A DNA stretch of 62,945 bases, filler included, from Candidatus Tectimicrobiota bacterium (GTDB taxonomy: Bacteria > JACPSX01): the NCBI GenBank assembly GCA_016193065.1. It is 6 parts of 6 records of this genome, joined end to end, with 100 filler letters (N's around TTAATTAATTAA, not from the genome) between each part and the next. Parts side by side here need not be neighbours in the genome. Positions count along the whole stretch, not along the records: positions 1 to 21,069 come from JACPSX010000001.1; positions 21,170 to 32,395 come from JACPSX010000002.1; positions 32,496 to 37,859 come from JACPSX010000141.1; 3 more parts are not named here. The stretch is one strand, 5' to 3'. The notes below the pieces were generated by a model, which saw only the letters and a list, made by a program, of their open reading frames with translations, ran no database searches and was not told where the DNA came from. Every line of letters begins with the position of its first letter. Within the stretch, counting starts at the first letter, position 1. The translations under genes and the position numbers were made by a program. Shown one piece after another: positions 1,173 to 36,672 of the stretch.

Positions 1173-1205
1173 ACCTTAACACCCCCCTGTGACATCCGGG
1201 GTCAC
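1173..1205 (-). promoter_or_regulatory. Putative WYL-activated promoter, copy 1
   Basis: Minus strand GTGACC-CCGGA-TGTCAC-N10-TAAGGT. Confidence 0.65.
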
Positions 1206-1222
1206 TTTGGACAAAGAAACAT

Positions 1223-1251
1223 TTGACAGAATCCTGTACACAATTTAAGCT
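1223..1251 (+). promoter_or_regulatory. sigma70 promoter of TA operon with TGTACA operator core
   Basis: TTGACA-N17-TAAGCT with TGTACA in the spacer; same layout at 36689-36717. Confidence 0.7.
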
Positions 1252-1278
1252 AATCATACAAAACTTCTGGAGGATTCA

Positions 1279-1560
1279 ATGCCCCTTTCTTCCAAGGACA
1301 TCATTCCGCTCACGCGGGCCCGTGCGAAGCTTTCCGAGCTGTGCGAGGAAGTTCGCCGGGAGCACGGGGAGAAGATCCTCACCAAGAACGGCGAGAGCTG
1401 CGCAGCCCTCATTGACCCGGAACGCCTCGACCACTACCACCGGCTCGAACGGGAGCACGTCCATCTGATACTCCTTGAGGAGGCCATTCGCGGCCTCGAG
1501 GATCTGAAGACCGGGAAAACGGTCACTCTCCGCAAGCTGAAAACCCGGTATGGCCGCTAG
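1279..1560 (+). CDS. Phd/YefM family antitoxin
   Basis: IIPLTRARAKLSELCEEV...ILTKNGESCAALI; GGAGG RBS; overlaps toxin start. Confidence 0.85.
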   Translation: MPLSSKDIIPLTRARAKLSELCEEVRREHGEKILTKNGESCAALIDPERLDHYHRLEREHVHLILLEEAIRGLEDLKTGKTVTLRKLKTRYGR

Positions 1561-1924
1561 GGCGCGGAAGCCCGTCTTCACCGAAAATTTCGTAAACAAT
1601 CTGGAGTCGATCCTCCTCTTCCTCGAACCGGAAGGAGCAGATGCCTTTCAGCATCTCCTGGCCCGCATTTCCGATGACATTGTGCCCACTCTCTGCCGGT
1701 TTCCGCAGTCCGGGCGCTCCTTTCTCGCCCATCCAGTTCGCTCCCTTGAGGCGCAGGCTCTGATCAAGCAGCTGAAGCGTCTCTTGAGAAAGGGCGATGA
1801 TCTGCGGGAATTTGTCCTCGATGATTATCTGATTCTCTACCTGCTGCGAGGGAACCAGGTCATCTTCCTTTCGATCAAGCATCACCGGCAACTGTCCTTC
1901 GATTTCCGAAACATCTGGCCTTGA
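1550..1924 (+). CDS. RelE/ParE family toxin
   Basis: 124 aa coupled to antitoxin; FPQSGR...LREFVLDDYLILY...LSIKHHRQ. Confidence 0.8.
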   Translation: MAARARKPVFTENFVNNLESILLFLEPEGADAFQHLLARISDDIVPTLCRFPQSGRSFLAHPVRSLEAQALIKQLKRLLRKGDDLREFVLDDYLILYLLRGNQVIFLSIKHHRQLSFDFRNIWP

Positions 1925-1997
1925 CGGACCGCTTTTCATTAGTTGCCTTATGATGTGCAACACGTACACTTTTTCTAATCCTCATCAGGAAGCGACC

Positions 1998-2264
1998 ATG
2001 AAAATTACGATCAGCGAGGCCCGCAAACGACTGCCCGAGCTGGTCCGCCAGGTCAAAAAGGACCGGGGCACCACGGTGCAAATCACGGTGCGCGACGAAG
2101 TGGTGGCCGAGCTCCGGGCGGCGCTGCCCGAGCCCGAGCCCGGGGCGGCGGCCCGGAAGCTGCTGGAAGTGATGGGGAAGCTGCCGAAGGCTCGGGGGTC
2201 TAAGACGGATATCTCTTCGCGCGTCAAGGAGCACCTCTACGGAGGGAGCCGCGGGAGCCGGTAA
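1998..2264 (+). CDS. Phd/YefM family antitoxin
   Basis: MKITISEARKRLPELVRQV...VQITVRDEVVAEL. Confidence 0.75.
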   Translation: MKITISEARKRLPELVRQVKKDRGTTVQITVRDEVVAELRAALPEPEPGAAARKLLEVMGKLPKARGSKTDISSRVKEHLYGGSRGSR

Positions 2265-2414
2265 CTTTACTCCCTCTCCGCTATTTTCGGATGTATCCGC
2301 CTCTCCTTTTGTGATGCGATTTCCTTTGTGGTGGTCACCACGCTTCTGGATCACGTGCCCTGCCTTGCCTTCGATGAGGATTTTCGGGCGTTGGGGCTGA
2401 CGGTTGTTGTCTAA
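2265..2414 (+). pseudogene. C-terminal remnant of a VapC/PIN toxin
   Basis: RLSFCDAISFVVV...CLAFDEDFRALGLTVVV*; no start and N-terminal half missing. Confidence 0.7.
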
Positions 2415-2432
2415 CAGTGTATTGAAGAATCG

Positions 2433-2590
2433 TCCGTTCCCTCTTCACTGTTCGCCCTTCGACAAGCTCAGGACGAACGGTTAATGCGTTGTCCTTCGCT
2501 CTTCGAGTCTCAGGAAGCTCATGGGGCTCAGGGCGAACGGGAGTCGAAGGACTCAGGATGAGCGGCAGAGTCGAAGGGCTCACCACGAAC
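2433..2590. repeat. Cluster of REP-like units (GTTCGACAAGCTCAGG/ACGAACGG type)
   Basis: Same units occur inside the 854-983 element and at ~34397-34425 and ~45998-46035. Confidence 0.65.
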
Positions 2591-2720
2591 GATCCAGCAG
2601 CAGCGCTGCCGGGTGTTCACCCTCACCCTTGCTCTCTCCCACAAGGGAGAGGAAGCCACTGGCAGACGACGGCCCGGAAACCAGAGCTTCGCCCCGTGAT
2701 TCCCAGAACCACTGCAGACC

Positions 2721-2753
2721 AGCCTACCCGTCCCCTGTGACAGATCAGGTCAC
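2721..2753 (-). promoter_or_regulatory. Putative WYL-activated promoter, copy 2 (at the 3' end of the WYL gene)
   Basis: Minus strand GTGACC-TGATC-TGTCAC-N10-TAGGCT. Confidence 0.65.
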
Positions 2754-3730
2754 AGAGGGAAACTATTAGGGAGAGGGGTTCTTGTTGTCATGTATCCGCG
2801 GGCGATTTTCCGAGCCTCTTCCTGCACCCTCTTCCCCAGGCTTTCCGGCTTGAGGACCCGGACGCCGCTGCCGAAGCTCAAAATCCAGCCCAGGAGCTCC
2901 CGGGTATCCGCCACCTGAAGGGACATCTTGAGGCGGCCGTCTTTCAGGAGAGTGAGCCGCTGGCTGTCGTGCCAGATCCGATCCTGGACCCAGGGAGCGG
3001 TGGACTTTGCAAAGACAAGTTCCACATCGATCCGCCGGCCCCGCATGATCACCAGAGCATCCCGCAGGTACGCCTCCAGATCAAACCCCAAGGGCATCTG
3101 GTATGGGTGGCTCGTTACAGTAAGGGAGCGGATGCGATCCACGGCAAAAGTCCGCACGTCCCTGCGGGTGTGGCAGTAGGCGATCAGGTAGAGGGCTCCC
3201 GCCATGTACCAGAGACGGTAGGGGTCCACTTCCCGGCGGGTGGTTTTGTTCCTTGAGGCGGTGTAGTAGCGCATCTGAACCGTCCGGGTCCGGTCAATGG
3301 CATGGGCGAGGCGGTCGATGGTCTCCCGATGCTCCCGGTAGGTCTTGTGGGGGCCGATCCCCACGGCAAACAGGTCTTGCATTTGCCGGACGTAGGTTAA
3401 CCCCGAGGGCGGCAGGGCCGCAGTGGCCTTGTTCAGGGCCGAATCCAGGGAAGCTTTGATCTCGGTCCCCTCCAGGGGTTTCAGGAGGTTGCGGCTAAAG
3501 ACCAGGGCCATGAGTTCCGTGGGGGAAAAGGCCAGAGGAAGGGCGCGTCGGTCGTTGACGAGGGGGAAGCCCGCGGCTTCCAAGGCCTCGAGGTCCCGGC
3601 GCAGGGTGCGAAGGTGTTTGGGAAAGTCATCCGGGAGGCTGTGCGCCAACTCCTGTAGCGTCGAGCCGCGGGGAGATTCCAGCCTCTGGAGTAGAAGCCA
3701 CTGGCGGATCACCTGGTCATTGCGGGGCAT
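2750..3730 (-). CDS. HTH-WYL-WCX transcriptional regulator (PafB/PafC-like)
   Basis: HTH RTLRRDLEALEAAGFP; WYL core REVDPYRLWYMAGALYLIAYCH...RTFAVDRI; WCX WILSFGSGVRVLKP; ATG at 3730. Confidence 0.9.
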   Translation of the reverse strand: MPRNDQVIRQWLLLQRLESPRGSTLQELAHSLPDDFPKHLRTLRRDLEALEAAGFPLVNDRRALPLAFSPTELMALVFSRNLLKPLEGTEIKASLDSALNKATAALPPSGLTYVRQMQDLFAVGIGPHKTYREHRETIDRLAHAIDRTRTVQMRYYTASRNKTTRREVDPYRLWYMAGALYLIAYCHTRRDVRTFAVDRIRSLTVTSHPYQMPLGFDLEAYLRDALVIMRGRRIDVELVFAKSTAPWVQDRIWHDSQRLTLLKDGRLKMSLQVADTRELLGWILSFGSGVRVLKPESLGKRVQEEARKIARGYMTTRTPLPNSFPL

Positions 3731-3938
3731 GAAGTCTGCCTCCAGCGAAGCCAAAAGGAACAAGGACGGGAAAGGGAAGATGGGCTCCGGAAGTGCTGTT
3801 TGTCCTTGTGAGATATGCCCAATATACAACGATTTGAGGAGAGATCGCAAGAAAGGCGGGCTTTCGGAGCGGTTTTTCCAAATTGAATTCACCCCGGGAA
3901 CTGTGTAAGTTAGGGCCAAAGGTGAGCGGAGGACGACA

Positions 3939-4346
3939 ATGGGAGCCGAAAGTCTGGATCTTTTGCGGGAGAAGTTGCAGCAGGATCCTTTTGCCCGCGC
4001 TCTGGGAATCCGTCTCCTCCTGTTGGAGAAAGGGCTGGCCCGACTGGAGATGCCCCTCGGGGAGCACACCCGGAATTTCCTGGGGATGACTCACGGGGCA
4101 GCGATCTTTGCGTTGGCCGATCAGGCATTTGCCGCCGCCTGCAACTCCCACGGGGAGCGCTCGGTGGCCTTCAACGTGACGATCAGCTTTCTGGCCCCTC
4201 CCCGGGGAGATCGGCTCGTGGCGGAGGCCCGGGAGTTGAGCAGGAGCAAAAATGTGGGGGTCTACCACATCCAAGTCAATGACGCTGATGGTTCCGCCGT
4301 GGCCGAGGTCCAGGGGCTGGCGTATCGCCGGTCGGAGCGCACCTGA
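3939..4346 (+). CDS. PaaI family hotdog-fold thioesterase
   Basis: NFLGMTHGAAIFALADQAFAAACNS motif; RBS GGAGG. Confidence 0.85.
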   Translation: MGAESLDLLREKLQQDPFARALGIRLLLLEKGLARLEMPLGEHTRNFLGMTHGAAIFALADQAFAAACNSHGERSVAFNVTISFLAPPRGDRLVAEARELSRSKNVGVYHIQVNDADGSAVAEVQGLAYRRSERT

Positions 4347-4409
4347 TTCCCGCCTGGATCGCCATGGGCCTCCGCCGTGATGTGCCGAGAGGTCAGCGAG
4401 GGATTGACA

Positions 4410-4964
4410 ATGAGAAGACAAAACGGGTGGCTGGTTTGTGCGGCTCTGTTTCTTGCTCTGGCAGGGCAGGGATGGCTGGCGACTCCCGTTGCCTCCTTCA
4501 CGGCTCAGGAGATCGTGTCCCTGAAACGAGCGGGGATCTCCGAAGAGGTGATCGCCCTCATGGTGGAGAAGCGCTCCGATGTCATGGGTCTGCTAAGCGC
4601 TCAAGACGCCTTGACCCTGAGGGCCGGCGGGGTCGGCGATCCCGTTTTGCGAGCGCTGCTCTCCCCGACACGGCAAGGGGGTTCACTGCAGAAGTTCCTG
4701 CCTGTCGAGGGGATCGTGCGCCTCAAGGAAGCCGGAGTCGGCGATGATCTTCTGCGCTACATACTTGACCGGTACCTGGAGATGAGCCGGGAGGAAGAGG
4801 CAGGGGTCTCCCGGGTCATCGTGGACCAATCGGGCCGCCGGGTCATCGTTTACGGAGATCGTGAACCCTCGCCTCGCTTGAAGGAGTTGGAAGAAAAGCT
4901 CAAGGAGTCCAGGGCCTGGGAGCTTTTGAAGACCATGGGCCTCATTGTGGACAAGAGGCCCTGA
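4410..4964 (+). CDS. Hypothetical exported protein
   Basis: Signal-peptide-like N-terminus; three repeats of an 'IxxLKxAGV/I' helical motif. Confidence 0.65.
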   Translation: MRRQNGWLVCAALFLALAGQGWLATPVASFTAQEIVSLKRAGISEEVIALMVEKRSDVMGLLSAQDALTLRAGGVGDPVLRALLSPTRQGGSLQKFLPVEGIVRLKEAGVGDDLLRYILDRYLEMSREEEAGVSRVIVDQSGRRVIVYGDREPSPRLKELEEKLKESRAWELLKTMGLIVDKRP

Positions 4965-4975
4965 GGGGAGCGGGG

Positions 4976-5953
4976 TTGGGAAAAGGAGACCTCCGTTTCG
5001 GGCTCATCGGCTTGGGGCGGCACGGCAGCCGCTATGCGCGCCACCTGCTGCATGATGTGGCCGGAGCGGTGTTAGGAGCTGTGTGCCGGCGGGACCGCGC
5101 CGCCGGGGAAGAATTCGCCGCAGCGCACGGGGTGCCGTTTTTTGAAGATTGGCGGGAGCTGATCTGGTCCCCCGTTGTCGATGCCGTTGCCGTGGTCACC
5201 CCGCCCGCGCTGTACCTGCCGATTTCTCAGGAGACGGCCCGGGCTGGGAAGCCCTTGCTTTTGGAAAAGCCTCTGGGAACCAGCCCACAGGAAGCTCGGG
5301 CCATTGTGCAGGCGGCTGCCGAGGCCCGCATTCCCCTCATGGTGGCACAGACCATGAGATTCAGCGAGGTGGTCCAGACCCTCCTGGCCCACAAGCCGTC
5401 CATCGGACCCGTTCACATGCTGGTTCTAAGCCAGCGCCTGGAGCCCTCTCCTCTCGCCTGGCTGGATGATCCCGCGGCGGCTGGAGGCGGGACCATACTT
5501 CACACCGGCATCCATCTCTTCGATCTGGTTCGCTATCTGATGGAGGACGAGGTGGCCCAGGTCTCGTGCGTTGCGAGCCGGGTGTTTTCCCGACACCTGG
5601 AAGATTCTTTTGCCGCCCTGTTTACTCTGCGGTCGGGCTCCGTCCTTTGCCACCTCGATTCCTGCCGCTTTGCCGGTGGGCGGACGGGACGCATTGAGCT
5701 GGTGGGTGAAAAAGGACAGTTGATGGGGGATCACATTCACAACTTTGCCTGTCGCGTTGAAGGACGCCAGACCACCCCGCTTCCGGTTCCTCCTCCCGTA
5801 AATACGGTGTGCGCAGCCCTTGAGGCCTTTACCTCCTGCTTGCAGAAAGGGAAAGAGCCTCCGATCTCCGGCCAGGACGGGCTGCGGGCCGTGGAGATTG
5901 CCTGGGCCTGCCAGCGCTCTGCTCAACTTGGAGAGACGGTCCACTTGCCCTGA
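4976..5953 (+). CDS. Gfo/Idh/MocA family oxidoreductase
   Basis: GLIGLGRHG Rossmann motif, LLEKPL, GGGTILHTGIHLFD. Confidence 0.9.
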   Translation: MGKGDLRFGLIGLGRHGSRYARHLLHDVAGAVLGAVCRRDRAAGEEFAAAHGVPFFEDWRELIWSPVVDAVAVVTPPALYLPISQETARAGKPLLLEKPLGTSPQEARAIVQAAAEARIPLMVAQTMRFSEVVQTLLAHKPSIGPVHMLVLSQRLEPSPLAWLDDPAAAGGGTILHTGIHLFDLVRYLMEDEVAQVSCVASRVFSRHLEDSFAALFTLRSGSVLCHLDSCRFAGGRTGRIELVGEKGQLMGDHIHNFACRVEGRQTTPLPVPPPVNTVCAALEAFTSCLQKGKEPPISGQDGLRAVEIAWACQRSAQLGETVHLP

Positions 5954-6081
5954 GCCCGGCACCCTCCGGGCGGACCCCGGTTCAGCCTTGGCCAAATGGG
6001 GATTGTATTTCTTCGGGAACTCTGTAAACTAGTTATCTGTCAAAGTAATAGCACTCGATGAAATCCGAGGTCTAATTGTCC

Positions 6082-7347
6082 ATGAGGTCCAGGAAGTTAA
6101 AAATCGCAGGGATTTTTTTGCTCATCGCGCTGGGCGCATTTGCTGGATACCGCCTGCTGCCTGTCCCCGGAACGAAGGCCGAGGAGCCCCGCCGGAGCCG
6201 GACCCAGGTCTTCCCGGTCCGCATCCAAAAAGTGTCCCCGGGGGACATAGAATACCGGCTCACGGCGACGGGGGACATCCTGGCGCTCATGCAGGTGGAC
6301 CTCCATCCCCGCGTCTCGGGATACCTGCAGTCCGTTCCGGTGCAGATCGGGATGCGGGTTGCCCAGGGACAGGTGATTGCCGTTGTGGATCAGGCCGAGA
6401 TCACGCAGAAGGTCAGAGAGGCCGAGGCGGTCTTGGCCAAGGCCAGAGCCCAGATGGCGGAGGTGCGGGCCGGAGCCCGGCCCGAGGAGCTGGCCCAGGC
6501 GGAAGAGAGCTGGCGCCAGACGAAATCCCGCCTGGAAAATGCCCGCATCAACCTGGAAAGAGTCCGCAGCCTGGTCAGAAACGGCTACGTGGCCCGCCAG
6601 GAGCTGGATAATGCACAACTGGCCTACGAGCTGGCGGAGGCCCAGTCGGTGGCCGCAACCAACCAGCTTGAGCTGGTTCGCAAGGGAGCGCGCGCCGAAG
6701 TCCGGGAAGCCATGGAGGCTCAGGTCAAACAAGCCGAGGCCACTCTCAACCAGCAGCGCCTCCAGTTGGAAAATACCGTGGTGCGGGCCCCGTTTTCCGG
6801 CAACATTTCCCGCCGCTTCGTCGATCCCGGAGCCCTGGTTTCGACTTCCACCCCGCTGGTCACGGTGGTCCACTCGGATACGGTCAAGGTTCTCGTCAAC
6901 ATTCTGGAAAAGGATCTCCCCCTGATCAAAGTCGGAGCGGCGATCTTCGTGCGCACGGACGCCTACCCCGACAAGGTGTTCCAAGGGCAGGTGGTGCGTC
7001 TCAACTCGGCTTTCGAGACGGCCAGCCGGACCCTGGTGGCCGAAGCCCACATCCAGAACCCGGGCGGAGCCCTCAAGCCCGGGATGTTTGCCCGGGTCGA
7101 GGTGCTCCTGGCCAGGAAATCGGCGGTCCTGCGGGTTCCCACGGATGCTCTCCTGAGGGATGAGGAGCGCAAGGCTACATTTCTCTACGTGGTGAACGGC
7201 GATAAGGTGTCGCGCAGGCCGGTGACGACCGGTCTTAGCCAGGATTCCGCCACGGAAGTGGTCTCCGGGCTTAAGGAAGGGGAGGCCGTTGTCACCGTGG
7301 GCCACCAGCGCCTGCGTGACGGGGCTTCCGTTCAGGTCATTCAGTAA
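6082..7347 (+). CDS. RND efflux periplasmic adaptor (MFP)
   Basis: N-terminal TM, biotinyl-lipoyl halves, long coiled coil, VRAPFSG, LKPGMFARV. Confidence 0.9.
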   Translation: MRSRKLKIAGIFLLIALGAFAGYRLLPVPGTKAEEPRRSRTQVFPVRIQKVSPGDIEYRLTATGDILALMQVDLHPRVSGYLQSVPVQIGMRVAQGQVIAVVDQAEITQKVREAEAVLAKARAQMAEVRAGARPEELAQAEESWRQTKSRLENARINLERVRSLVRNGYVARQELDNAQLAYELAEAQSVAATNQLELVRKGARAEVREAMEAQVKQAEATLNQQRLQLENTVVRAPFSGNISRRFVDPGALVSTSTPLVTVVHSDTVKVLVNILEKDLPLIKVGAAIFVRTDAYPDKVFQGQVVRLNSAFETASRTLVAEAHIQNPGGALKPGMFARVEVLLARKSAVLRVPTDALLRDEERKATFLYVVNGDKVSRRPVTTGLSQDSATEVVSGLKEGEAVVTVGHQRLRDGASVQVIQ

Positions 7348-7360
7348 GTAAAGGAACAGC

Positions 7361-12256: not shown

Positions 12257-12285
12257 CCGCGTGCGGAAGCAACATCGAGAGTAGC

Positions 12286-15520: not shown

Positions 15521-15533
15521 GGGGGTTGTTTTC

Positions 15534-18254: not shown

Positions 18255-18382
18255 GACTGTGTCATAAGTCCGTTCATGGTTCGACAGGCTCACCACGAAC
18301 GGATGACGACACACGGAAATCCAACCACTTAGCCGTTCGTCCTGAGCTTGTCGAAGGGCGAACGGCGGATTGCGACATAGTC
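18255..18382. mobile_element. Second copy of the MITE-like element
   Basis: GACTGTGTCATAA...TTGCGACATAGTC, flanked by direct repeat TTGTGGC (18248-18254 and 18383-18389). Confidence 0.7.
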
Positions 18383-18426
18383 TTGTGGCCGGTGGGGTCA
18401 TCATAGCACGGGTACTTTGTCGGCAA

Positions 18427-21069: not shown

Positions 21070-21169
21070 NNNNNNNNNNNNNNNNNNNNNNNNNNNNNNN
21101 NNNNNNNNNNNNNTTAATTAATTAANNNNNNNNNNNNNNNNNNNNNNNNNNNNNNNNNNNNNNNNNNNN
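21070..21169. other. Artificial contig linker
   Basis: N-run, TTAATTAATTAA, N-run; identical linkers at 32396, 37860, 48762 and 58141. Confidence 0.97.
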
Positions 21170-22018
21170 CGCCTGCTGAGCCGCCGCTGCCCCCGCAGTA
21201 TCCCGCATCGTTACCGCTTCACTTTGCGCCTCCCGCGCCGCCTGCAAGGACGCCTGGGCCTGCACCCCCGCCGCCTGCGCCGTCTGCTGCGCCGCCGCCA
21301 CCTGCTGCGTGGGCGCCTGGGCCGCCGCCTGCTGCGTCGCCTGCGCCGCCTGCTGCGTCGCCTGCACCGCCTGCTGCGCCGCCGCCACCGCCTGCGCCGC
21401 CGCCTGCTGCACCGGGGCCTGCCTAGCCTGCGCCGGCAGTACCACCGGGAGCGTGGGAGAAATCGGCGCTGATGGCACCCAGTTCCCTTGAGTCAGCCCC
21501 CCCCCGGTCTGCCCCTGCAATCCAACCCCCAGGTTGCCTGCCGTCCCCCTTAGGGCCGCCACCACCGTGGGCGTCTCCAACGAATGCTCCTTTTCCCCTT
21601 CTTTGCTGGTTAAATTAAAGGCAATCTGTCCCAGCAACACCCGGACCTTACGGACCACCACCAAGCGGCGCACAAAAAACCCCCGGCTCTCTTTCTTCTC
21701 CGTAATCCGCACGTTGGAGTCCGGAGATACATCCACCACCCCCCCATCGGACCACACCACCCGGGCCCGCCCCTCCTGGGTCACCACCTTGTCCCCGCTG
21801 ACCAGATCCACAGGCACCCGCTCCACCACCGTCCAGTTCTCCTGGCTCTTCACCCACACCACCCCCTGAAACTGGTCGATCCGCGCTATGGACTCAGTCT
21901 GGGCAAACACAGGCGGGGCAATCAGAACGGACCCAACGGTAAAAAGAAACAGCAGGACCACACACTGCGCCAGAGCACGGCTTGAGAAGGAGAAACCTTT
22001 CAAGTAGAAGCGCCGCAT
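21170..22018 (-). CDS. Exported FecR-domain protein with Ala/Gln low-complexity tract (3' truncated)
   Basis: Signal peptide; GDKVVTQEGRA, LETPTVVAALRGT; AQQA repeats. Confidence 0.75.
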
Positions 22019-22172
22019 CTTGCACCTCCTAAAAAAGCCGAAGACCGGGGTTGTTAGTGTCCTTAGCTTTGTCTTGAAAATCAGGCCGGGCTTACCTCCC
22101 GGACTCCCAGAGAGGGAATAGACCTAATTATAGGAACGAGCCAGGGGAAAAGCAATAAATTTATCCTCCTAC

Positions 22173-27967: not shown

Positions 27968-27996
27968 TTGACATCGCCGGTTGCAGCCCGTACATT
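27968..27996 (+). promoter_or_regulatory. sigma70 promoter of dksA-like gene
   Basis: TTGACA-N17-TACATT. Confidence 0.6.
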
Positions 27997-28050
27997 ATGT
28001 TTCATTTTAGAGGGGCTTGCAGCTTGCATTCTGCGCTGCAAGTGACAACG

Positions 28051-28407: not shown

Positions 28408-29159
28408 TTCCCCGGCAAGCCGAGAGCCCCCAGGATCTCCTTCTGGAGCGCAATCAGCCTGGGATCATCAATCTGCCGCACCCGAGGGATATCTACCGGG
28501 ACTGTCTTCATAATCGTGGCCGGCCTGGTGCCGAACAGGTGCACGCGATCCGCCAAGTACACGGCCTCCAAAGCATTATGAGTCACAAAGAGAACCGTCC
28601 TGCGGTCTTCACGCCAGATGCGCAGAAGCTCCTGGCGCATCGTGCGGGCTGTGAGTTCGTCCAGATGGCTGAAAGGCTCATCCATCAGGAGAATATCCGG
28701 ATCGATGACCAGAGCCCGGGCAATGGCAACCCGCTGCTGCATCCCTCCTGACAGGGACAGAGGGTATTCTTCCACGAACTGCTCAAGCCCCACCAGCCTC
28801 ACGTAACGGTTCACCCGGTCGGCCCACTGCGAGCGCGGGATTTGCCTGGCCTCCATGGCGAAGTGGAGGTTTTCCCGCACGGTACGCCAGTTGAGAAGCC
28901 GGCTCTTTTGAAAAACATAGCCTGTCCTCACAGGCGAGACCTCCAGGCTCTTCCCCCCCACGGTGACCTTGCCCCCATCGGTCGTCATCAATCCCGCCAG
29001 GATGTTCAAGACCGTGGATTTTCCGCACCCCGACGGCCCCAGGAGGCAGCAAAACTCCCTCTCTTCCACGGAGAAGCTGACTCCCCCCAGGACGGGAAGC
29101 GGCGTGCCGTTCTGCAGCCGGAAGGTCTTGTGAAGATCCTCAATCACCAAAAAGGACAT
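28404..29159 (-). CDS. NitT/TauT family ABC transporter ATP-binding protein
   Basis: GPSGCGKS, LSGGMQQR, LMDEPF. Confidence 0.92.
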   Translation of the reverse strand: MSFLVIEDLHKTFRLQNGTPLPVLGGVSFSVEEREFCCLLGPSGCGKSTVLNILAGLMTTDGGKVTVGGKSLEVSPVRTGYVFQKSRLLNWRTVRENLHFAMEARQIPRSQWADRVNRYVRLVGLEQFVEEYPLSLSGGMQQRVAIARALVIDPDILLMDEPFSHLDELTARTMRQELLRIWREDRRTVLFVTHNALEAVYLADRVHLFGTRPATIMKTVPVDIPRVRQIDDPRLIALQKEILGALGLPGN

Positions 29160-29180
29160 CGCCTGCTTTTCCCCGAGGGA

Positions 29181-29945
29181 TCACATGAGGGTTACTGCGG
29201 GCCGCCATTTGGTAGCCCGCTTTTCAATGAGCTTTACGATGCCGAACTCCAGAAGAATCATCACCAGAGTGAAGGACAGCGTCCAGGCCAGCACCCCTTC
29301 CATGTCAAAGAGGCCAAAGGAATGATTGATCATGAAGCCCACTCCGTTGCTCAGGCCCAGCATTTCCGCCACCACGACCACTTTCCAGGCCAGGGCAAAG
29401 CCGAAGCGGGTCGCTGCAAAAAGGTAGGGGACCAATTGGGGAATGACCACGTGGCGAATGACCATCTTCCGGCTGGCCTTGAAAGCATGTCCCATCTCGA
29501 TGAGCTCTCTGTCCAGGGCCTTGGTCCCCTCCCACATGTTCACGGCAATCATGGGCAGGATGATGATGAAGATGGAGAAGATGGCCGAGAAATCGCGAAT
29601 CCCAAACCACATGAGGGAGATGATGGCCCAGGCCAGGCCGGGGATGGTCAGTCCCACAAGAACTTCGACCTCAAAGAAGTGTTCCGCCAGCCGGCTAAAT
29701 CCCATAACCATGCCAATCAGGCTTCCAATCACGAAAGCCCACAAAAACCCCAGGATGACCCGCAGGAGGGTTTTGTACATGTGAAACAGAAACTCGCCGG
29801 TAAAGAGCAGAGCAGCCACTTTCTTCAGGACAATTTCCGGCCCCGGGATAAAGCTCGGGGGGAAAAACAGGGAAATAATCCACCAGACCACAAGAATCGC
29901 CAGGAGAGAGAGGCCCCGGATCAGGTTTGCTGACGATCTGTTCAT
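29181..29945 (-). CDS. NitT/TauT family ABC transporter permease
   Basis: 6 TM; WKVVVVAEMLG...GVG. Confidence 0.9.
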   Translation of the reverse strand: MNRSSANLIRGLSLLAILVVWWIISLFFPPSFIPGPEIVLKKVAALLFTGEFLFHMYKTLLRVILGFLWAFVIGSLIGMVMGFSRLAEHFFEVEVLVGLTIPGLAWAIISLMWFGIRDFSAIFSIFIIILPMIAVNMWEGTKALDRELIEMGHAFKASRKMVIRHVVIPQLVPYLFAATRFGFALAWKVVVVAEMLGLSNGVGFMINHSFGLFDMEGVLAWTLSFTLVMILLEFGIVKLIEKRATKWRPAVTLM

Positions 29946-30038
29946 CAGTTTCTTGCGGCCTCCGGGCGCCGAAATCCCACGGGCCCCCGCCCGCGCCGAA
30001 GCGGAGTGCCGGGGGCCCGCCGTATACAGGCGCTCAGC

Positions 30039-31010
30039 CTAATCCACACTGCGCAAAAATTCATCCTTGGGCATTTGTTCCAGGATCTTCATCTCCACAT
30101 TCTTCTGGATTAACAACTTCGTGTTCTCCAGAAGCTTTGGAGCCCAGCCCTCTATAAAGATCCCCGGCATACGGGAAGTGACCAGTTTCATTTCCTCAGG
30201 CGTTTTGACTCCCAGGAAATCGTTTTGCTCCTCTATGATTTTAGCAGGGTTTGTCTTGAGCATGCGCACCCCCTCGGTAAATGCCCGCCCCAATCCCCTA
30301 GCGGCTTCCAGGTTTTTATCAATCCATCCCTTGTGTGCGGCGATACCGATAATCAGCAAGGGCTGCCCCGTTTCGCTGCGCCAGAGGTCGTTAAAGGTGG
30401 CGGTTTCCCGGGCCTGGTTGGCGGCGATCAGCTTGGAGGTGTTCGCATCAAACTGGCCGATGGCATCCACGTCCTTGCGAAGGAGAAACGCGTTCAAGGC
30501 CTGAGGTGTGCCAAAGGTCAGCTTATAATCTTTCTCCACGTCGCCTCCCCGCATCTTCACAATCGTGGCAAAGGAGGTGTACATGGCCGAGACCCGGGCC
30601 AGCAAGCCCAGCTTCTTCCCCTTCAGGTCATCCACGGTTCGCAGCGGCGATTCGGGGGGGACGAGAATTGAAAAGTGGCTCAGCATGATCGGGTGGAAAA
30701 TTTGGACCTTTTGCCCTTTCAGATTGGCCCGGGCTGCCGAAACGGGGGCAAAAATCCCCGCATCGACCGTTTTAAAGAAGACGGCCTCCTCTCCCTTGGC
30801 CGGATCGAAGTACTTGAAGTCGATGGCAAGCCCGTGCTTCTTGTCGAGCCCGCGACCGTCGATGATCTTGCTGATGAGCCCCGCCGCTGCCCCAGCGCTA
30901 GTGGTCGAAACCGTCACCTTCTTTAAGTCCTGGGCCCAAGTGCTTCCAGCAAAAAGCACAAAGGCAACCAAGGTGCAAAAGGCCCCTGCGATCCTGCGAT
31001 CTCGATCCAT
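30039..31010 (-). CDS. NitT/TauT family ABC substrate-binding protein
   Basis: Signal peptide; DDLKGKKLG; operon position. Confidence 0.85.
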   Translation of the reverse strand: MDRDRRIAGAFCTLVAFVLFAGSTWAQDLKKVTVSTTSAGAAAGLISKIIDGRGLDKKHGLAIDFKYFDPAKGEEAVFFKTVDAGIFAPVSAARANLKGQKVQIFHPIMLSHFSILVPPESPLRTVDDLKGKKLGLLARVSAMYTSFATIVKMRGGDVEKDYKLTFGTPQALNAFLLRKDVDAIGQFDANTSKLIAANQARETATFNDLWRSETGQPLLIIGIAAHKGWIDKNLEAARGLGRAFTEGVRMLKTNPAKIIEEQNDFLGVKTPEEMKLVTSRMPGIFIEGWAPKLLENTKLLIQKNVEMKILEQMPKDEFLRSVD

Positions 31011-31414
31011 GGTTGCTCCCCCTTGTCGCGATGATTTCCCGGGAAATAAGAGTTTCAAAAATCTACCAAAACCCCTCCCATCTGTCAATTCCTCCTCGGC
31101 TTCTTGAAGCTGGCGCGACAGAGGGCACCCACCTGCCTGCCGCGGCGCAGGCAGGCGCAGGGGTGCCCCTACGCGGTAGTCTTCAGTCCGAGGGGGTAGC
31201 TCCCGTAGGCGATCTAAGCGGTTGCGAGGAAGAGAACTCTCAATCCGGCCGACACAACTCACGTCGCAAGCGCTTCGTGAGCCCAAGGGAGCTCCCCCGA
31301 GGAACTGATGAGGGAGGGCAGCAATTCCTCGCTAGAAAAAGGGGATGGGCAAGCGGCAGAGTCCCTTGTAATTCTCCAGCACCCGTGGTAAACAGGGGCA
31401 GGAGGATTTGGGTC

Positions 31415-31723
31415 ATGGGAAAACATCAAGCCACAACGATCGAGGTGATCTGCCCTTGCTGCCAGGCGAAGCTGACCATCGATCCCTCACTGAAGGCTGT
31501 CCTCAGCCATGAGCCGCCTCCCAAAGCCAGCGCCGTTACCGACCTAACCGAGGCGGTGCAAGCCCTCAAGGGGAAAGCGAGCGAGCGCGAAGCCCGCTTC
31601 CTGCAATCCGTCGAAGCGGAAAAGGGAAAGGGGAAAGTCTTGGAGCGCAAGTTCCAGGAAGCCTTCAAGAAGGCCAAGGATGAGCCCATTACCCGCACCC
31701 CCAGGCCCTTCGACCTTGACTGA
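31415..31723 (+). CDS. Hypothetical protein with CPCC Zn-ribbon-like motif
   Basis: RBS AGGAGG; IEVICPCCQAKLTID followed by a charged helix, ends PFDLD. Confidence 0.75.
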   Translation: MGKHQATTIEVICPCCQAKLTIDPSLKAVLSHEPPPKASAVTDLTEAVQALKGKASEREARFLQSVEAEKGKGKVLERKFQEAFKKAKDEPITRTPRPFDLD

Positions 31724-31777
31724 TCCGGCGCGTGGCCCCGCGGCGGGCGCGGCCGCAATCCTCTAGCCTCGCTGTCC

Positions 31778-32395
31778 GTGTCTGATCCTCTGCTGGGACC
31801 TCTTCTCAAAGGGGTGAGCCGGTCATTTTTCCTGACCCTGTGGGTTCTCCCGCCAGATCTAAAAGAACCCATGGGGCTCGCTTACCTGCTGGCCCGGGCC
31901 GCTGACACTCTCGCAGACCTGCCCTCTGTGAACCTCCCGGATCGCCTGCTGGCCCTGGACTATTTTCGCAGACGGCTGCGGGAGAAGGACAGCCCTCTGT
32001 TCAAGTACATTGCGGACGCTTGCCGGGCAGGAGATGCCGGATCCAGCGAGATCATTCTCCTGCGCCGGCTCAGCGACTGCTTGCAACGCTACGATGGTCT
32101 GGAGAACGGCGACCGGGAAAAGGTGAGCCGCCTCTTAATGACCCTCACTCAAGGGATGATGACCGATCTTACCGTCTTCCACGGAGAGAACCCGAGGCCC
32201 GTTGTGGCTTTGAAAACGCGCCGGGACCTCGAGAGCTACACCTATTCCGTGGCCGGCTGCGTGGGGAAGTTTTGGACCGAGATGGTCATGGCCCACCGTC
32301 CCTCCTGTTCTCACTGGGACCCGGAAGCCATGCCCCAAATGGGAATCCGCTTCGGCCAGGGACTCCAGATGACGAACATCCTGCGGGATCTCCCC
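31778..32395 (+). CDS. Squalene/phytoene synthase family protein (3' truncated)
   Basis: VSRSF, YLLARAADTLAD, YSVAGCVG, GLQMTNILRD. Confidence 0.88.
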
Positions 32396-32495
32396 NNNNN
32401 NNNNNNNNNNNNNNNNNNNNNNNNNNNNNNNNNNNNNNNTTAATTAATTAANNNNNNNNNNNNNNNNNNNNNNNNNNNNNNNNNNNNNNNNNNNN

Positions 32496-33002
32496 AAAGC
32501 TGACGCCGGAGGTCATGAAAAAGCCGCCCGCGTCGAGAAGCCGAGTCGCGAGGAGTGCTCCGGCAATACCGGTCTCGGACAGGCCAAAGTCGACCAGCTC
32601 CAAGGGCGGCCCTGGGGCGCCGGCCTGAATTTCCGCCAAACAATCGGAAAGCACGGCATGACTGCCGCGATGGACGCACTCAACCCGGAAGAGAGAGAAG
32701 CGCCCAGTCCTCATGACACGGAGGCGGCGGCGTTCATCGTCTGTCAGTGCGGAGTCACCGATCTGTCCCTCAAAGTGATCGAGTGTATTCTTCCCCGCCC
32801 ATCTCTTGTCGTAGATGATCCGCTCCATGAGAACGTCCGTGTCGCCCTCCTCCCCGACGAGCACCCCCTTCTTCCAAAGACGCAGCTCCCGGGCAGTCGC
32901 AATCAGAACGCTCTTGGGAATTACCTCGAGGATTCTCACATATAATTTCTTCCCGGCCTCGCGAAGGGACCGGTACGTTCGGATTTCGCTGGTGCCGATC
33001 AT
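32496..33002 (-). CDS. Hypothetical protein (3' truncated)
   Basis: RBS, open to contig end, co-directional with SEC-C gene. Confidence 0.6.
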
Positions 33003-33069
33003 CGGTGTCTCGTTCTCCTTCCATCAGATTCGATCGCGTCGAAGAGGGGTTGTCTGGATCGGACGATTT

Positions 33070-34341
33070 TCATGGCCGCTCCGCATCTCGCTTCAGGCAG
33101 CAGCGCTTGTACTTCCGGCCGGAGCCGCAGGGGCAGGGGTCGTTGCGCCCCACCTTCGGGCCGCGTGCGGCGGGCCGGCGGGCCGGCGTGAGAAGCCCAT
33201 CCGGGTCGCCGAAGCGGTCGGCCAGCCGCGCCGCCTCTGCCAGCAGGCGGGCTCTGGCCGGTCCCACTGCCTCGACACCCTGCTCGATGAGCCACTCGCA
33301 GGTCCGGCGGCACATGTGAAGCTCGTCCAGTTCCTCCTGCCAACGCGCCCGGGCGGTCGGAGTCAGCGGTTCGCCCTTCTCCCATTGCTCCCACTCCCGG
33401 TCATCCAGCTCCTCGAACAGGTCAAAGAGATCCTCCAGGCCGTCTTCCCGGGCGCCTTTCAGGAAGCTGAGCTGATACATGGTGATGCCGAGCGCGGTCT
33501 CCGGGCAGACCGGAAGACCGCTGGGACTCTCGATGGGCGCGCCGCACTCCTCGCAGGTCTCGGAAGATTCATCGGGCTCGGGCTGCTCCTTGACGATCTC
33601 TTCCAGGGACCGGGGCGGGAAGGTAGCCCGCTCGGGCATCGGTTCCTCGGTCCCCCGAATCGCGGCGCAAATTCCAACCCACCCCAGCGCGAAATCGCCC
33701 AAGCTGGGCAGAATACGGTAGCGCAGCCGCCAGTCCCGGGTCCAGATCGGAGTCTCAGACCGGCCCCAGTGAAGCTCCCGGAGGACGTCCTCGAACTCGA
33801 TCCGCTGCCAGGGCTCGCAGGCTCGATACGCCTCGTAGAGGCATGGGATCGCTTCGGGCCGTCCCTGATCGCTCAGGGCCAGGGCCAAGACCTCTCCCAG
33901 ATCGCGGTCGCGGCCAAGGGCATCGAGCAGAGCGGCGTAGGCCCGGTCGTCCCGGATCCAGCCCAGGCCACCGTAGGCGTAGAGGCGGAGAAGCGGATCG
34001 GGCGCAGTGGCGACCTCGATCAGAGCGGGGACCGCCGGGGCGCCGATCTTGGCCAAAGCTTCGGTCGCCGCCAAGGCCAGGGAGTCGAGATCGGTCCGGC
34101 GCATCTGGGCAATCAGCGGGGCTACGGCGGACGGATGCCTGAGTTCTCCCAGGAGGACAGCAGGCCAGAGGAGATCGCGCTCCTGATCGTCCTGGAAGCG
34201 CGCCAGCGCCTCGATCAGGGCGGGGACCGCGGGCTCCCCCATAGCCAGCACCTGCTCCATGGCGCGGACCGGCATCCCGACCGGCCAGGTGGTGATCTCT
34301 TCAATCAGGTCATCGAGGGAACGTGCCAGGGGCTCCGTCAT
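33070..34341 (-). CDS. HEAT-repeat protein with C-terminal SEC-C motif
   Basis: AVPALIEAL repeats; KVGRNDPCPCGSGRKYKRCC. Confidence 0.85.
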   Translation of the reverse strand: MTEPLARSLDDLIEEITTWPVGMPVRAMEQVLAMGEPAVPALIEALARFQDDQERDLLWPAVLLGELRHPSAVAPLIAQMRRTDLDSLALAATEALAKIGAPAVPALIEVATAPDPLLRLYAYGGLGWIRDDRAYAALLDALGRDRDLGEVLALALSDQGRPEAIPCLYEAYRACEPWQRIEFEDVLRELHWGRSETPIWTRDWRLRYRILPSLGDFALGWVGICAAIRGTEEPMPERATFPPRSLEEIVKEQPEPDESSETCEECGAPIESPSGLPVCPETALGITMYQLSFLKGAREDGLEDLFDLFEELDDREWEQWEKGEPLTPTARARWQEELDELHMCRRTCEWLIEQGVEAVGPARARLLAEAARLADRFGDPDGLLTPARRPAARGPKVGRNDPCPCGSGRKYKRCCLKRDAERP

Positions 34342-34615
34342 GATGCCTCCGAATTCAGCGGGCGTTTATTTTCTAACAGGATGCTAAAAAAGTCCTTTTC
34401 GTGGTTCGACAAGCTCACCATGAACGATCAAGCACCAGCGCTGACGGGTGGTTCACCCTCACCCTTCCCCTCTCCCTCAAGGGAGAGGGGGTTCCTGTTT
34501 CCTGTTGACGGATGCGGGAAAGGCTTGCCAGCGGCCTGTTGGTTCCGTGGATAGCGCAGTGGCATTGCAGATTTTCCTTGAAATTCCGCAAAGGCAATGC
34601 CAGATTTCGAGCAGC

Positions 34616-34801
34616 ATGAGGCTGCATCCCCGCCGACTTCTCCCGCTGCTTCAGGCGCGTCTGGCCCGCTGGCCGGTCGTGGTGCTGACCGGGGCACGCC
34701 AGACGGGAAAGACCACGCTCGTCCGCAACCTGCTTTCTACTTCGGAAGCACCCCCGTCCGTATACTTCTCCCTGCACGACCCCGACGAACGCTCGTGGTA
34801 G
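34616..34801 (+). pseudogene. AAA_14-type ATPase N-terminal fragment
   Basis: VVVLTGARQTGKTTLV Walker A, then premature stop. Confidence 0.7.
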
Positions 34802-34859
34802 TGATTCGTCCATGCCTCTCCTTACAGGGTCAGGATGTAGTTCAGTTCTTCCGTGACAC

Positions 34860-34993
34860 CAAGTCGCTCGCGGTCTTCCCCAGACGGCCAGGGCCCAGGC
34901 ACCAATCAGCACATAGGGCACCCGCTCGCGTCGGAAACAGTCCACCGAAAGCTTCAGGAGCGCAAGGAGACTAGCGCCGGAAAGAGCGGGCAC
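34860..34993 (-). pseudogene. Nucleotidyltransferase N-terminal fragment
   Basis: VPYVLIGAWALAVWGRPRAT, broken where the DxD motif should follow. Confidence 0.6.
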
Positions 34994-35264
34994 ATTCCTT
35001 CCTCCACGCGGATATCCATCGGGCTTCAGCGCGAGACAGGCCGGCCAGCAAGCGGCGTGTTTCCACCTCCACTCGCTTCTCATCCCCTCCCGCCCCGGTC
35101 TTCCTTCTTATTTCCTCCCGGAGCAAGCGGACCCCAACGGCTGAAAGGGCCGCACACTGTCTCAGCCCTTCCTCGGAAGTGCGCGGGAACTCCGCCCATT
35201 TCAATTCCTCTTTCACCTGACTGAGTCGCAGAAGCCACCGGGGGCCTCGATTCGGCCGTTTCAT
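34971..35264 (-). CDS. Hypothetical protein upstream of nucleotidyltransferase remnant
   Basis: 97-aa ORF with RBS overlapping the next start. Confidence 0.5.
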   Translation of the reverse strand: MKRPNRGPRWLLRLSQVKEELKWAEFPRTSEEGLRQCAALSAVGVRLLREEIRRKTGAGGDEKRVEVETRRLLAGLSRAEARWISAWRKECARSFRR

Positions 35265-35314
35265 GAGTTCTCCATTCCCTCCCTGCGCATTGCATCTTTC
35301 ACAAGACGCTCGCT

Positions 35315-36341
35315 TCATCCTGCCCCCCCACCCATCCCTTCCCCGCAACGGGGGGAGGGGAAGAAATTGAGGATCTCATACCATCCATTTCCCCACACGG
35401 CGTACTTCCCCACGTGCACGTGTTGCCCCAGGGTCAATAGAGGTAGAAACTCATCCAGGGTCCCTTCGTAGGTTCCCTCCNNNNNNNNNNNNNNNNNNNN
35501 NNNCGACAAACCCGGAAAGCTCATGCTCCAGATTCTGCTTGCGGGAGTAGCGGCTCCTCTCCTCCCAGTGAAAATCGGCCTGAGTGGAAATCACCTGCTC
35601 GGCCTTTTGACCAAATGCTTTGTGATCCATCTCCAGGGTTTCATCGCAATAGAAGTAGGCGAGGGAGTTCACCCGGTCGCGCAGGCGTTTGATGATCTGA
35701 TGGAACTCCGGCCGCTGGATGATTTGGCCATCGGCCTTGAGCACAGTAGGGGTCAAGAAACGGAGGGTGATTCGGGCGGGAGTTGACGAGGGAATCGAGG
35801 AGATAACCTCCTTATAACAAAACGAGGACGGCAGGTTCCGGACAAGCGCATCGCTCTCCCGGTAGATAATCCCGGCGGTCTGTTCCGAAAGATCCAGGCC
35901 GGAGATTTCCTGGAGGTCGAATCTTCCCTGCTTCGCCCCGATCCCAATGTTCCCCAGTTCACGGAAGGTCACGATGAAGTACGGGAGGTACTCGATGGCC
36001 TTTCCGATGAGGATGAGGTCGAAAGAAAAGGGGTGCTCCGGATCATATCGTGTCGCAGTTTCCAGAGGAGGTCGGATGATAAAAGGCCGGGGGATGTCCG
36101 CATTTTTCGAGAGGCGTTCGGCACCTTCCGGGGGAGCCGGTTCAAAAATCTGGCCGTAAGGGCAGCGGTCCTTGAGTCGGCAGGCCATCCCGCAGGCCCG
36201 AGGATCGACGCAGCTAAGACGCTTGAATACCGACCCGAAGGCGCCGCGCAGCGTGTTTCCCTTATTGTAAGCAGGCAGGAAGATCGGTTCCCTGGGAAGG
36301 AGATGAAAGCGGTACTGCGCCAGCCGAAAGCCTTTCAGCAT
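35315..36341 (-). CDS. cas6: CRISPR-associated RAMP endoribonuclease Cas6 (interrupted by N-gap 35481-35503)
   Basis: GNTLRGAFG, C..C....CPY, PRPFII, LRFLTP, and G-rich loop HVGKYAVWGNGWY after the gap. Confidence 0.85.
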
Positions 36342-36639
36342 GGGCCAGACCTCATACTGGTCGTCTGAGGAATGGAACCCCAAGGGTGCCGGGAGTCTCT
36401 TGCGCGAAGGATCAGCAAGAGTTTATTCGAAGCATCGAAAAAGATCAACCGAAACGTGCGGCAACTCATCCCACCCTCACCCTTGCCCTCTCCCTCAAGG
36501 GAGAGGGTACATAGGCTTTTGCCCTCTCCCTCCAGAAAGAGGGGAAAGAAAGGAGCCTTCTCCCGCCAGGAGAAGAGGAGCGTAAGATACAAGAGAAATT
36601 AGGGACCGGCCTTCTTTCTATTGGAAACCCGTGCTTGCG

Positions 36640-36672
36640 ACGTTAACAGACTGCTGTGACACCAGAGGTCAC
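36640..36672 (-). promoter_or_regulatory. Putative WYL-activated promoter, copy 3 (facing cas6)
   Basis: Minus strand GTGACC-TCTGG-TGTCAC-N10-TAACGT. Confidence 0.65.

Follow-up and report, generated by a model that had tools for sequence, protein, structure and literature searches.

Two transcription activators, DriD and PafBC, are the described systems closest to the one reported here. DriD of Caulobacter crescentus is described as a homodimeric winged helix-turn-helix (wHTH)-WYL-WCX protein activated by single-stranded DNA (ssDNA), its site, ATACGAC-N7-GTCGTAT, set at a constant distance from the -10 of promoters that have no recognisable -35 (PMC13004042). Its residues R37 and R41 are reported to make bidentate contacts to two half-site guanines, their loss abolishing binding, the wing mutant T61A-K62A to weaken DNA binding from 1.6 nM to 1.2 uM, and the centre of its sites to be AT-rich (PMC10853764). 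PafBC is described as a heterodimer of WYL paralogues in which only PafB reads DNA, recognising a GTC triplet in a -28 to -23 element of promoters with a canonical -10 and no -35, and in which PafC contacts domain 4 of the sigma factor (PMC8635444). Further WYL proteins linked to defence genes are described as repressors, namely BrxR, which has its operator, an inverted repeat of 11 bp with a 5-bp spacer, downstream of the -10, Sll7009, which acts at a type I-D CRISPR locus (both PMC9122601), and CapW (PMC11662680). Here we describe a 33-base promoter element, GTGACC-N5-TGTCAC-N10-TAnnnT (two half-sites, an N10 and a -10 hexamer), which occurs three times in a 62,945-nucleotide stretch of DNA from Candidatus Tectimicrobiota bacterium (assembly GCA_016193065.1; the window, meaning the whole stretch analysed) and recurs in its relatives beside genes for HTH-WYL-WCX proteins and ahead of cas operons.

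WYL genes beside cas loci were reportedly called regulators by Makarova and colleagues in 2014, and this kind of system is already known. In the literature as represented by search listings and abstracts, no definition of the DNA site or promoter architecture of cas-linked WYL regulators was found; a defined cis-element for CRISPR-linked WYL regulators, spread over phyla and type I subtypes, appears to be new. The switching-on of type I CRISPR-Cas is known for few organisms, and the outcome here is a precise cis-element whose geometry is fixed, together with a candidate for its binder and a set of target operons listed from several phyla. This would link CRISPR induction to an ssDNA-sensing activator mechanism that has been solved for DriD and PafBC, and the motif is usable for annotating inducible cas operons in metagenomes.

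The three sites and the regulator gene beside the second are arranged as follows.

1173-1205, minus strand: site 1, with GTGACC at 1205-1200, N5, TGTCAC at 1194-1189, an N10 ending in TGt and the -10 TAAGGT at 1178-1173
2721-2753, minus strand: site 2, with the -10 TAGGCT at 2726-2721 and the WYL stop codon TGA (2752-2750) inside its GTGACC half-site
36640-36672, minus strand: site 3, with the -10 TAACGT at 36645-36640, facing cas6
2750-3730, minus strand: gene for an HTH-WYL-WCX regulator of 326 aa, start ATG at 3730, with an in-frame deletion of the 14-residue wHTH wing
3821-3850, minus strand: the WYL gene's own sigma-70-like promoter, TTGCGA-18-TATATT; upstream of this gene the motif is absent

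A scan of the window for the palindrome GTGACC-N5-TGTCAC found these three copies (1189-1205, 2737-2753 and 36656-36672), all on the minus strand, against no match in 100 dinucleotide-preserving shuffles (expected number 0), and at all three TAnnnT follows exactly 10 nt past TGTCAC. Three minus-strand copies at these coordinates, with identical half-sites and differing spacers, one of them overlapping the WYL stop codon, is also what a sequence-only reading of this DNA had described, and all of this was borne out. No further palindrome was found in the window by a search for GTGAC-N7-GTCAC with up to one mismatch. The C after GTGAC, the T before GTCAC and the AG after the second half-site are asymmetric positions common to all three copies, which gives the element a direction. 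Sites 1 and 3 are paralogous, each being the left edge of one 740-bp duplication (1169-1905 vs. 36636-37371, 80% identity) which carries a phd-parE toxin-antitoxin (TA) cassette on the plus strand, and they are therefore not independent; between them the half-sites are identical, whilst two of five spacer bases and six of ten N10 bases agree.

The window also contains five identical blocks of 44 N-TTAATTAATTAA-44 N (21070-21169, 32396-32495, 37860-37959, 48762-48861 and 58141-58240), which are most likely artificial spacers, so that the window joins at least six contigs; we take the blocks to be six-frame-stop linkers used to string draft contigs together. Sites 1 and 2 (contig at 1-21069) and site 3 (contig at 32496-37859) most likely lie on different contigs, the 33-kb distance between sites may therefore not be genomic and the figure of three copies per genome rests on binning.

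Strain variation leaves the element in place. In sequencing run X2 a variant of site 1 carries C>T at 1205, giving ATGACC, an alternative also found in relatives, together with two altered spacer bases, the remaining half-site bases being intact (all changes within 1195-1209). In run X4 the contig of a diverged strain has six listed changes at 2700-2716, just downstream of the site 2 -10, and none listed in 2721-2753. The variants thus alter spacer and flanks and keep the consensus, which we count for the promoter reading. At gathering thresholds Rfam gave no match in the window.

We searched relatives, taking one genome per species, and obtained 23 loci (numbered L001 onwards) with relatives of the WYL protein, 21 of them at 51-75% identity. 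The record titles name Rokubacteria, NC10/Methylomirabilis, Nitrospira, Acidobacteriota, Terriglobia, Deltaproteobacteria, Gammaproteobacteria and others, and no actinobacteria, in line with the non-actinobacterial lineage proposed earlier. Allowing at most two mismatches in the 12 half-site positions on the WYL strand, the motif lies downstream of the WYL gene and on the same strand in 16 of the 21 close-homologue loci, between -17 and +998 nt from the end of the WYL match. In many of these 16 it starts within 20 nt of the WYL stop codon, and in many loci the stop codon is embedded in a half-site; the distance is -17 to +19 nt in L005, L007, L010, L012, L013, L017, L018 and L020. The position of site 2 is the ancestral one for this promoter. 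In L001, L002, L003 and L019 the motif stands 750-1000 bp further on, past an inverted antitoxin-PIN toxin pair, in L015 and L016 sites occur elsewhere, and in L008 the contig ends before the expected place. Among the 21 close homologues, L014 has no site and L021 only a relic with three mismatches; in the more distant pair, L022 and L023 (25-28% identity), there is no site.

The motif also leads back to WYL genes when it is used as the only query. In 201 genomes from the phylum to which the L016 genome belongs, the full pattern matched 33 times in 27 genomes, compared with no match for the reversed control, four of the 33 coming from the unpublished genomes G034 and G105 (without these, 29 matches in 25 of 199 genomes); this excess over chance counts for the promoter, and it is in relatives that the motif scan proposed in the sequence-only reading was made. 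We examined 31 loci picked by motif alone, which include two overlapping pairs, one locus (L046) that is the L011 contig, and L050 and L061 from the unpublished genomes. A WYL homologue lies within 1.5 kb on either side in 15 of the 31: seven belong to the close clade and sit immediately upstream on the same strand, seven belong to a second clade (34-36% identity, in L061 a match of only a 62-residue fragment) and one is 30% identical. The motif therefore belongs with this HTH-WYL-WCX clade (16 of 21 loci by homology, 15 of 31 by motif). The second clade (L048/L065, L049, L052, L057, L062 and L061) has the same half-sites and spacing with a C-rich spacer such as TTCCC or CTCCC, and in L052, L057 and L062 it is the WYL gene itself that the motif precedes.

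Copies are few in each genome. The full pattern occurs 0, 1, 3, 1 and 0 times in the genomes of five relatives, and the element is a local switch or promoter with 0-3 copies per genome and no large regulon, so that the PafBC-style regulon put forward in the sequence-only reading is not supported as one of PafBC size.

To describe the promoter part we used 23 sites from relatives picked by their half-sites alone (at most one mismatch), and 26 sites when the three window sites are added. TAnnnT stands at exactly N10 in 13 of the 23 (background 0.53%) and TA at N10 in four more (background 2.4%), the PafBC-like TGTCxx-N10-TAnnnT geometry first seen in the window is thus kept in relatives. Across the 26 sites the second -10 base is A in 25, the final base T in 20, and an extended -10 TGn occurs in 14 (background 6%). 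The best TTGACA match at 16-18 bp spacing reaches at most three of six bases in all 26, i.e. there is no -35 box, and a generic sigma-70 scan reported no promoter at the three window sites. The consensus of the 26 is RTGACC-yCGga-TGTCAC-N7-TGn-TAnnnT, whose half-sites form a pseudo-palindrome with a GAC-N7-GTC core. The 33-base motif is a real, widely conserved promoter without a -35 box.

Past the motif, on the same strand, come cas genes in a number of relatives: cas6/cmx6 and then cas3 in L017, cas3g and cas7g in L012, cas7g in L007, cas3 in L013, cas8b1 (a type I-B match) in L032, and cas3-like genes in L054, L058 and L063. The cas types following it are I-G, I-E, I-MYXAN and I-B, where the I-E-like subtype of L013 is our reading of the gene order. 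Other genes take this place as well, a vWA gene in L015 and a gene for an SDH-family Clp-fold protease in L016. In L029, whose Cas6 is 94% identical to that of the window, the motif and an inverted antitoxin gene are kept upstream of cas6, and in L031 and L032 (Cas6 46-50% identical) the motif follows an inverted RelE-like pair and is itself followed by a cas8b-like gene.

We compared the regulator with the WYL proteins of known structure. The window protein matches WYL (PF13280, E 4.1e-23) and WCX (PF25583, E 1.3e-18), both above curated cut-offs, and a profile of its family matched PafBC (E 6.6e-23), PafC (3.2e-17) and full-length DriD (~1e-15), but BrxR only at 1.7e-3, and no chain named CapW was among the matches listed. 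PafBC is therefore the best-scoring solved relative, TGTCAC-N10-TAnnnT has its spacing with TGTCxx at -28 to -23, and the features of a sigma-adaptation promoter (GTC element, -10 ten bp further on, no -35) are all found here. However, PafBC is a mycobacterial heterodimer reported to control ~150 genes, whereas here there is one WYL gene per locus, a second, symmetric half-site is conserved, sites number 0-3 per genome and the relatives' record titles name no actinobacteria. DriD, like the present regulator, is the product of a single gene (full-length alignment at E ~1e-11 to 1e-15), its site has the same GAC-N7-GTC core, its targets likewise lack a recognisable -35 and hold the site at a fixed distance from the -10, and its base-reading R37 and R41 correspond in the alignment to R41 and R45 of the window protein, which are invariant in all 11 sequences of the family alignment. 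The second WYL clade also keeps both recognition-helix arginines.

DriD differs in detail. The outer half-site base is C/G in DriD and T/A here, and E40, which contacts it in DriD, is R44 in the window protein and W in the second clade; the distance from GTC to the -10 is 11 nt in the DriD didA oligonucleotide, where we assigned the -10 ourselves, and 12 nt here; and the DriD targets are DNA-damage genes, those here cas operons. The second conserved half-site and the single gene per locus make the DriD homodimer a better-fitting mechanistic model than the PafB/PafC heterodimer. The proposal that a single WYL protein uses the PafBC geometry on a palindromic site accordingly survives for motif and geometry at the level of the family, but the nearer model is DriD and the WYL protein of this locus is wingless. 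SiwR of Mycobacterium smegmatis, set apart here by its published description only, is similarly a homodimeric, locally acting WYL protein, described as an activator, with an imperfect palindrome just upstream of the -10, but its palindrome is 19 bp long, its targets are of the DinB superfamily (adjacent dinB-like genes) and it is actinobacterial. BrxR, CapW and Sll7009 share with the present family an HTH-WYL build, a place beside defence or CRISPR loci and binding to inverted repeats, but they are repressors, the similarity to BrxR is marginal, and a site that ends 10 bp upstream of the -10, in a promoter with no -35, is not an operator of the BrxR/CapW type, which overlaps the -10 of an otherwise complete promoter or lies past it.

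Taken together, the element is probably a WYL-dependent, activator-type promoter. The neighbouring HTH-WYL-WCX protein would most likely bind the half-sites as a dimer, using the conserved pair of recognition-helix arginines. With the -10 placed at -12 to -7, the half-sites would occupy about -28 to -23 (proximal) and about -39 to -34 (distal). The -10 itself is weak, often extended by TGn, and lies 10 bp past the half-site with no -35, so RNA polymerase with the housekeeping sigma factor would start efficiently only when the WYL dimer is bound, an arrangement as in DriD and, under the name of sigma adaptation, in PafBC. By analogy with both, the WYL domain may sense ssDNA arising from phage attack or DNA damage. 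In relatives the promoter, at the WYL stop codon or past a nested TA pair, would drive type I cas operons and a few other genes. What the sequences show is the motif itself with its conservation, its orientation, its tie to WYL genes and the genes that follow it; binding by the WYL protein, activation, ligand and transcription start we infer; induction rather than repression, and the sensing of nucleic acid, are likewise what the analogy suggests.

We would give about even chances to a wider proposal, in which the element and its regulator form a portable one-gene-one-promoter switch. A homodimeric WYL protein would recruit the housekeeping RNA polymerase to a -35-less promoter, outside Actinobacteria and Alphaproteobacteria, and would activate type I cas operons of at least four subtypes (I-B, I-E, I-G and I-MYXAN), with some other genes, solely upon the appearance of ssDNA through infection or damage. 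The switch would pass from phylum to phylum as one unit, the regulator's stop codon lying inside its own target site and TA pairs nesting repeatedly between regulator and promoter.

Several observations weigh against a promoter activated by the neighbouring WYL protein. Six of the 23 sites picked by half-sites have neither TAnnnT nor TA at N10; the sites counted are not phylogenetically independent (close pairs L005/L007 and L012/L013, and L046, which repeats L011), and binomial P values calculated from them are therefore too strong; and the centre of the site, AT-rich in DriD, is GC-rich here (CCGGA, consensus y-C-G-g-a). No RNA run containing window positions 600-4000 is listed, and the start site and the sign of regulation are deductions. 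The WYL protein of the window lacks its wing, and the three window sites may be unoccupied relics. About half of the sites have the extended -10 TGn and could be active without a regulator, which fits a repressor, and the defence-linked WYL proteins BrxR and Sll7009 (PMC9122601) and CapW (PMC11662680) are described as repressing their targets. Finally, 16 of the 31 motif-picked loci have no WYL gene within 1.5 kb, nor is there one in the flanks of L031 and L032, where the motif precedes cas8b-like genes; at such sites the regulator possibly acts in trans, or another protein binds.

The extended -10 and the repressing relatives point to one alternative in particular, in which a WYL dimer sits on -39 to -23 of a weak extended -10 promoter as a repressor and is released on ssDNA, in the manner of CapW, BrxR and Sll7009. 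That the WYL gene has an ordinary promoter of its own would suit this arrangement too. Yet the half-site keeps exactly N10 to the -10 across phyla, a spacing which a steric repressor does not need and which DriD and PafBC show, the BrxR operator lies downstream of the -10 (PMC9122601), in sequence the family stands much nearer to PafBC and DriD than to BrxR, and the -10 hexamers of the window sites are poor. Because the site is exactly phased to the -10, a -35 is missing and the family is akin to PafBC and DriD, we prefer activation and consider repression unlikely, with perhaps a fifth of our confidence. The loci without a WYL gene would instead be explained if the motif were a conserved promoter and operator bound by some other factor, with the WYL gene merely a frequent neighbour in cas and defence islands. 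This is a good deal less probable still, as the WYL stop codon is so often built into the half-site, a second WYL clade of 34-36% identity again adjoins the same half-sites, and the GAC-N7-GTC core with the arginine pair fits the way in which DriD and PafB read DNA.

The activator-type promoter also has to be set against its TA neighbours, which in the window are the following.

1223-1251, plus strand: promoter of TA cassette 1, TTGACA-17-TAAGCT, divergent from site 1, read from the sequence and below the threshold of the sigma-70 scan
1223-1924, plus strand: TA cassette 1, phd/yefM (1279-1560) and parE (1550-1924), assigned by Pfam
1950-2408, plus strand: a second antitoxin gene (1950-2264) and a PIN toxin remnant (2298-2408)
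36689-36717, plus strand: promoter of TA cassette 2, TTGACA-17-TATGAT, divergent from site 3
36689-37390, plus strand: TA cassette 2, phd (36745-37026) and parE (37016-37390)
37391-37507, minus strand: second WYL gene, reduced to a fragment (roughly residues 84-120 of the L001 protein) that directly adjoins the stop codon of the second parE

Between sites 2 and 1 lie repeat elements, the PIN remnant, the antitoxin gene and phd-parE, all oriented against the WYL gene. The antitoxin at 1950-2264 is 74% identical to that of L001, and of its PIN toxin only residues 101-137 remain; the same antitoxin is found in L001, L002, L003, L008 and L019, where the pair sits between the WYL gene and the motif. 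Inverted antitoxin-PIN pairs between WYL gene and target promoter were seen more widely (L001, L002, L003, L008, L019, L045, L047, L063 and window 1950-2408), other TA families occupy the same place (in the window Phd-ParE, in L031 and L032 a pair of RelE-like type, in L015 and L027 one of nucleotidyltransferase-HEPN type), and the TA promoters always stand back to back with the WYL-type promoter.

Such proximity raises the question of whether the palindrome is the operator of the adjacent Phd/YefM-type antitoxin, or an upstream element of the divergent TA promoter, with TAnnnT incidental. Sites 1 and 3 are 74 bp upstream of the phd starts and ~17 bp upstream of the TTGACA boxes, within the duplicated cassette, and TA pairs flank the motif in L001, L002, L003, L019, L029, L031 and L032. 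However, there is no TA pair beside site 2, nor beside the sites of L005, L007, L009, L010, L012, L013, L017, L018 and L020, the TA families concerned (Phd-ParE, antitoxin-PIN, RelE-like, nucleotidyltransferase-HEPN) are unrelated and so share no antitoxin, and the asymmetry of the motif and its -10 always point away from the TA genes; of all the explanations considered, we regard this as the least probable. Only slightly less remote is that the motif is a repeat with no regulatory role, whether as part of a mobile cassette, as a site for recombination or as a hairpin in the RNA that ends the WYL transcript. It would account for sites 2 and 1 flanking the TA block as a direct repeat, for the motif marking the edge of the duplicated cassette and for the wealth of repeat elements in the region, but the half-sites are invariant with no compensatory changes, the stem would have only 5 bp and no T run, an oriented -10 is conserved at a fixed distance with co-directional genes following, and most relatives have the motif without any cassette.

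Having preferred a WYL-dependent promoter for the family as a whole, we find a more modest message for the window itself, the wreck of two such modules. Read from its sequence, the module is present twice with both copies decaying: copy A comprises the wing-deleted WYL gene, site 2, the TA block, site 1 and a cmx6 remnant, and copy B the WYL fragment, a TA pair, site 3 and cas6. The fragment, ~720 bp from site 3, is the one which the sequence-only reading had placed about 700 bp away. In the regulator of copy A the wHTH helices and the recognition-helix motif RT-RRD are present and the wing is absent, whereas relatives have the complete feature; the 14-residue segment is present in 10 of 10 relatives in the alignment, and the deleted residues align with the DriD wing, T61 and K62 included. 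Logan contigs of runs X2 and X4 cross the deletion site without a gap, which argues against an assembly quirk, although both runs are from the same study, and the source of the assembly may be among them. An AlphaFold2 model built on the 11-sequence alignment was poor (mean predicted local distance difference test 56.6, predicted template modelling score 0.34). The local copies of the module may no longer work.

The genes that the window sites face are likewise reduced.

440-658, minus strand: downstream of site 1, a C-terminal fragment from an ORF6N-type gene, with identities of 51% (L009 gene) and 45% (L028 gene)
1061-1147, minus strand: 29-codon open reading frame (ORF) with a ribosome-binding site, a remnant of cas6/cmx6 (type I-MYXAN), its ATG (1147-1145) 25 nt past the site 1 -10
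35451-36383, minus strand: cas6 (RAMP Cas6 family), the only intact cas gene in the window, with a 23-N gap at 35481-35503
36556-36576, minus strand: terminator-like hairpin with a 9-bp stem and a pyrimidine-rich tail, flanked by repeat elements at 36404-36548

The ribosome-binding site and ATG noticed below site 1 do exist, but they open only the 29-codon ORF, whose residues 1-13 are identical at 10 of 13 positions to residues 1-13 of the L017 Cmx6, a protein that matches TIGR02807 at E 4.6e-65 and whose ATG lies 26 nt past its own -10. Nothing recognisable is driven by site 2, and sites 1 and 2 no longer precede cas genes; that the motif drives cas genes, as was first suggested, is consistent with its place ahead of cas operons in relatives but does not extend to these two sites. 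Site 3 alone of the three still faces an intact gene, and the cas6 noted there is a genuine member of its family. We assign it from a Pfam match to PF10040, which is borderline (25.9 bits, cut-off 25), and from the families of its homologues: there are 453 at E <= 0.001, those listed carry PF27225 and all but one also PF10040, several of those listed are named Cas6 by their source, and the L032 homologue lies within a type I-B locus. NCBIfam gave no match for it, nor for a 222-aa ORF at 34415-35083.

Whether site 3 drives this gene is less clear than its facing it would suggest, as ~260 nt with two repeat elements and the terminator-like hairpin lie between them. On the orthologous contig L029, GTGACC-N5-TGTCAC-N10-TAAGGT stands ~170 nt ahead of the point where the Cas6 match begins, and the upstream sequence examined there is without the hairpin and repeat segment found between site 3 and cas6. 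When the DNA downstream of the three sites was aligned, repeat elements dominated the result. A tblastn search of the window with ten I-MYXAN and I-G Cas proteins gave nothing below E 0.1 besides cas6 and the 13-residue Cmx6 remnant, no CRISPR array was found in the window, and the effector and cas3 operon plus array of a type I CRISPR-Cas locus are not present in it.

The name ORF6N for the type of the fragment at 440-658 is our assumption from the sequence pattern, and the L009 protein of this type had no NCBIfam match. Such genes lie downstream of the motif in six loci of the motif-picked set (L028, L039, L043, L044, L045 and L047). Counted over all loci, the type is a recurrent first gene past the motif, at times as tandem pairs (L004, L009, L028, L039, L043, L044, L045, L047 and the window fragment). 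Two overlapping ORFs downstream of cas6 (34415-35348), for which Pfam and NCBIfam gave no family, are 45-63% identical to ORFs that in L004 lie between the WYL gene and the motif.

Elsewhere the window carries housekeeping genes, such as RND efflux, proS, an MFS transporter and others. Families of short palindromic repeats crowd the decayed regions (782-822, 856-982, 2448-2658, 18255-18383, 34380-34494 and 36404-36548), and the word depth in the groundwater runs is ~1,100 to 26,000 for repeat-holding bins vs. ~5-80 for most other bins, these repeats are therefore extremely abundant in that groundwater community. A perfect 27-bp tandem duplication (39934-39987) lies within a ChrB-like gene (39184-40287, minus strand), and GC-rich nested tandem repeats with units of 9, 21 and 87 nt (CGCCGCCTG-like) occupy 21226-21435 in the ORF at 21122-22123.

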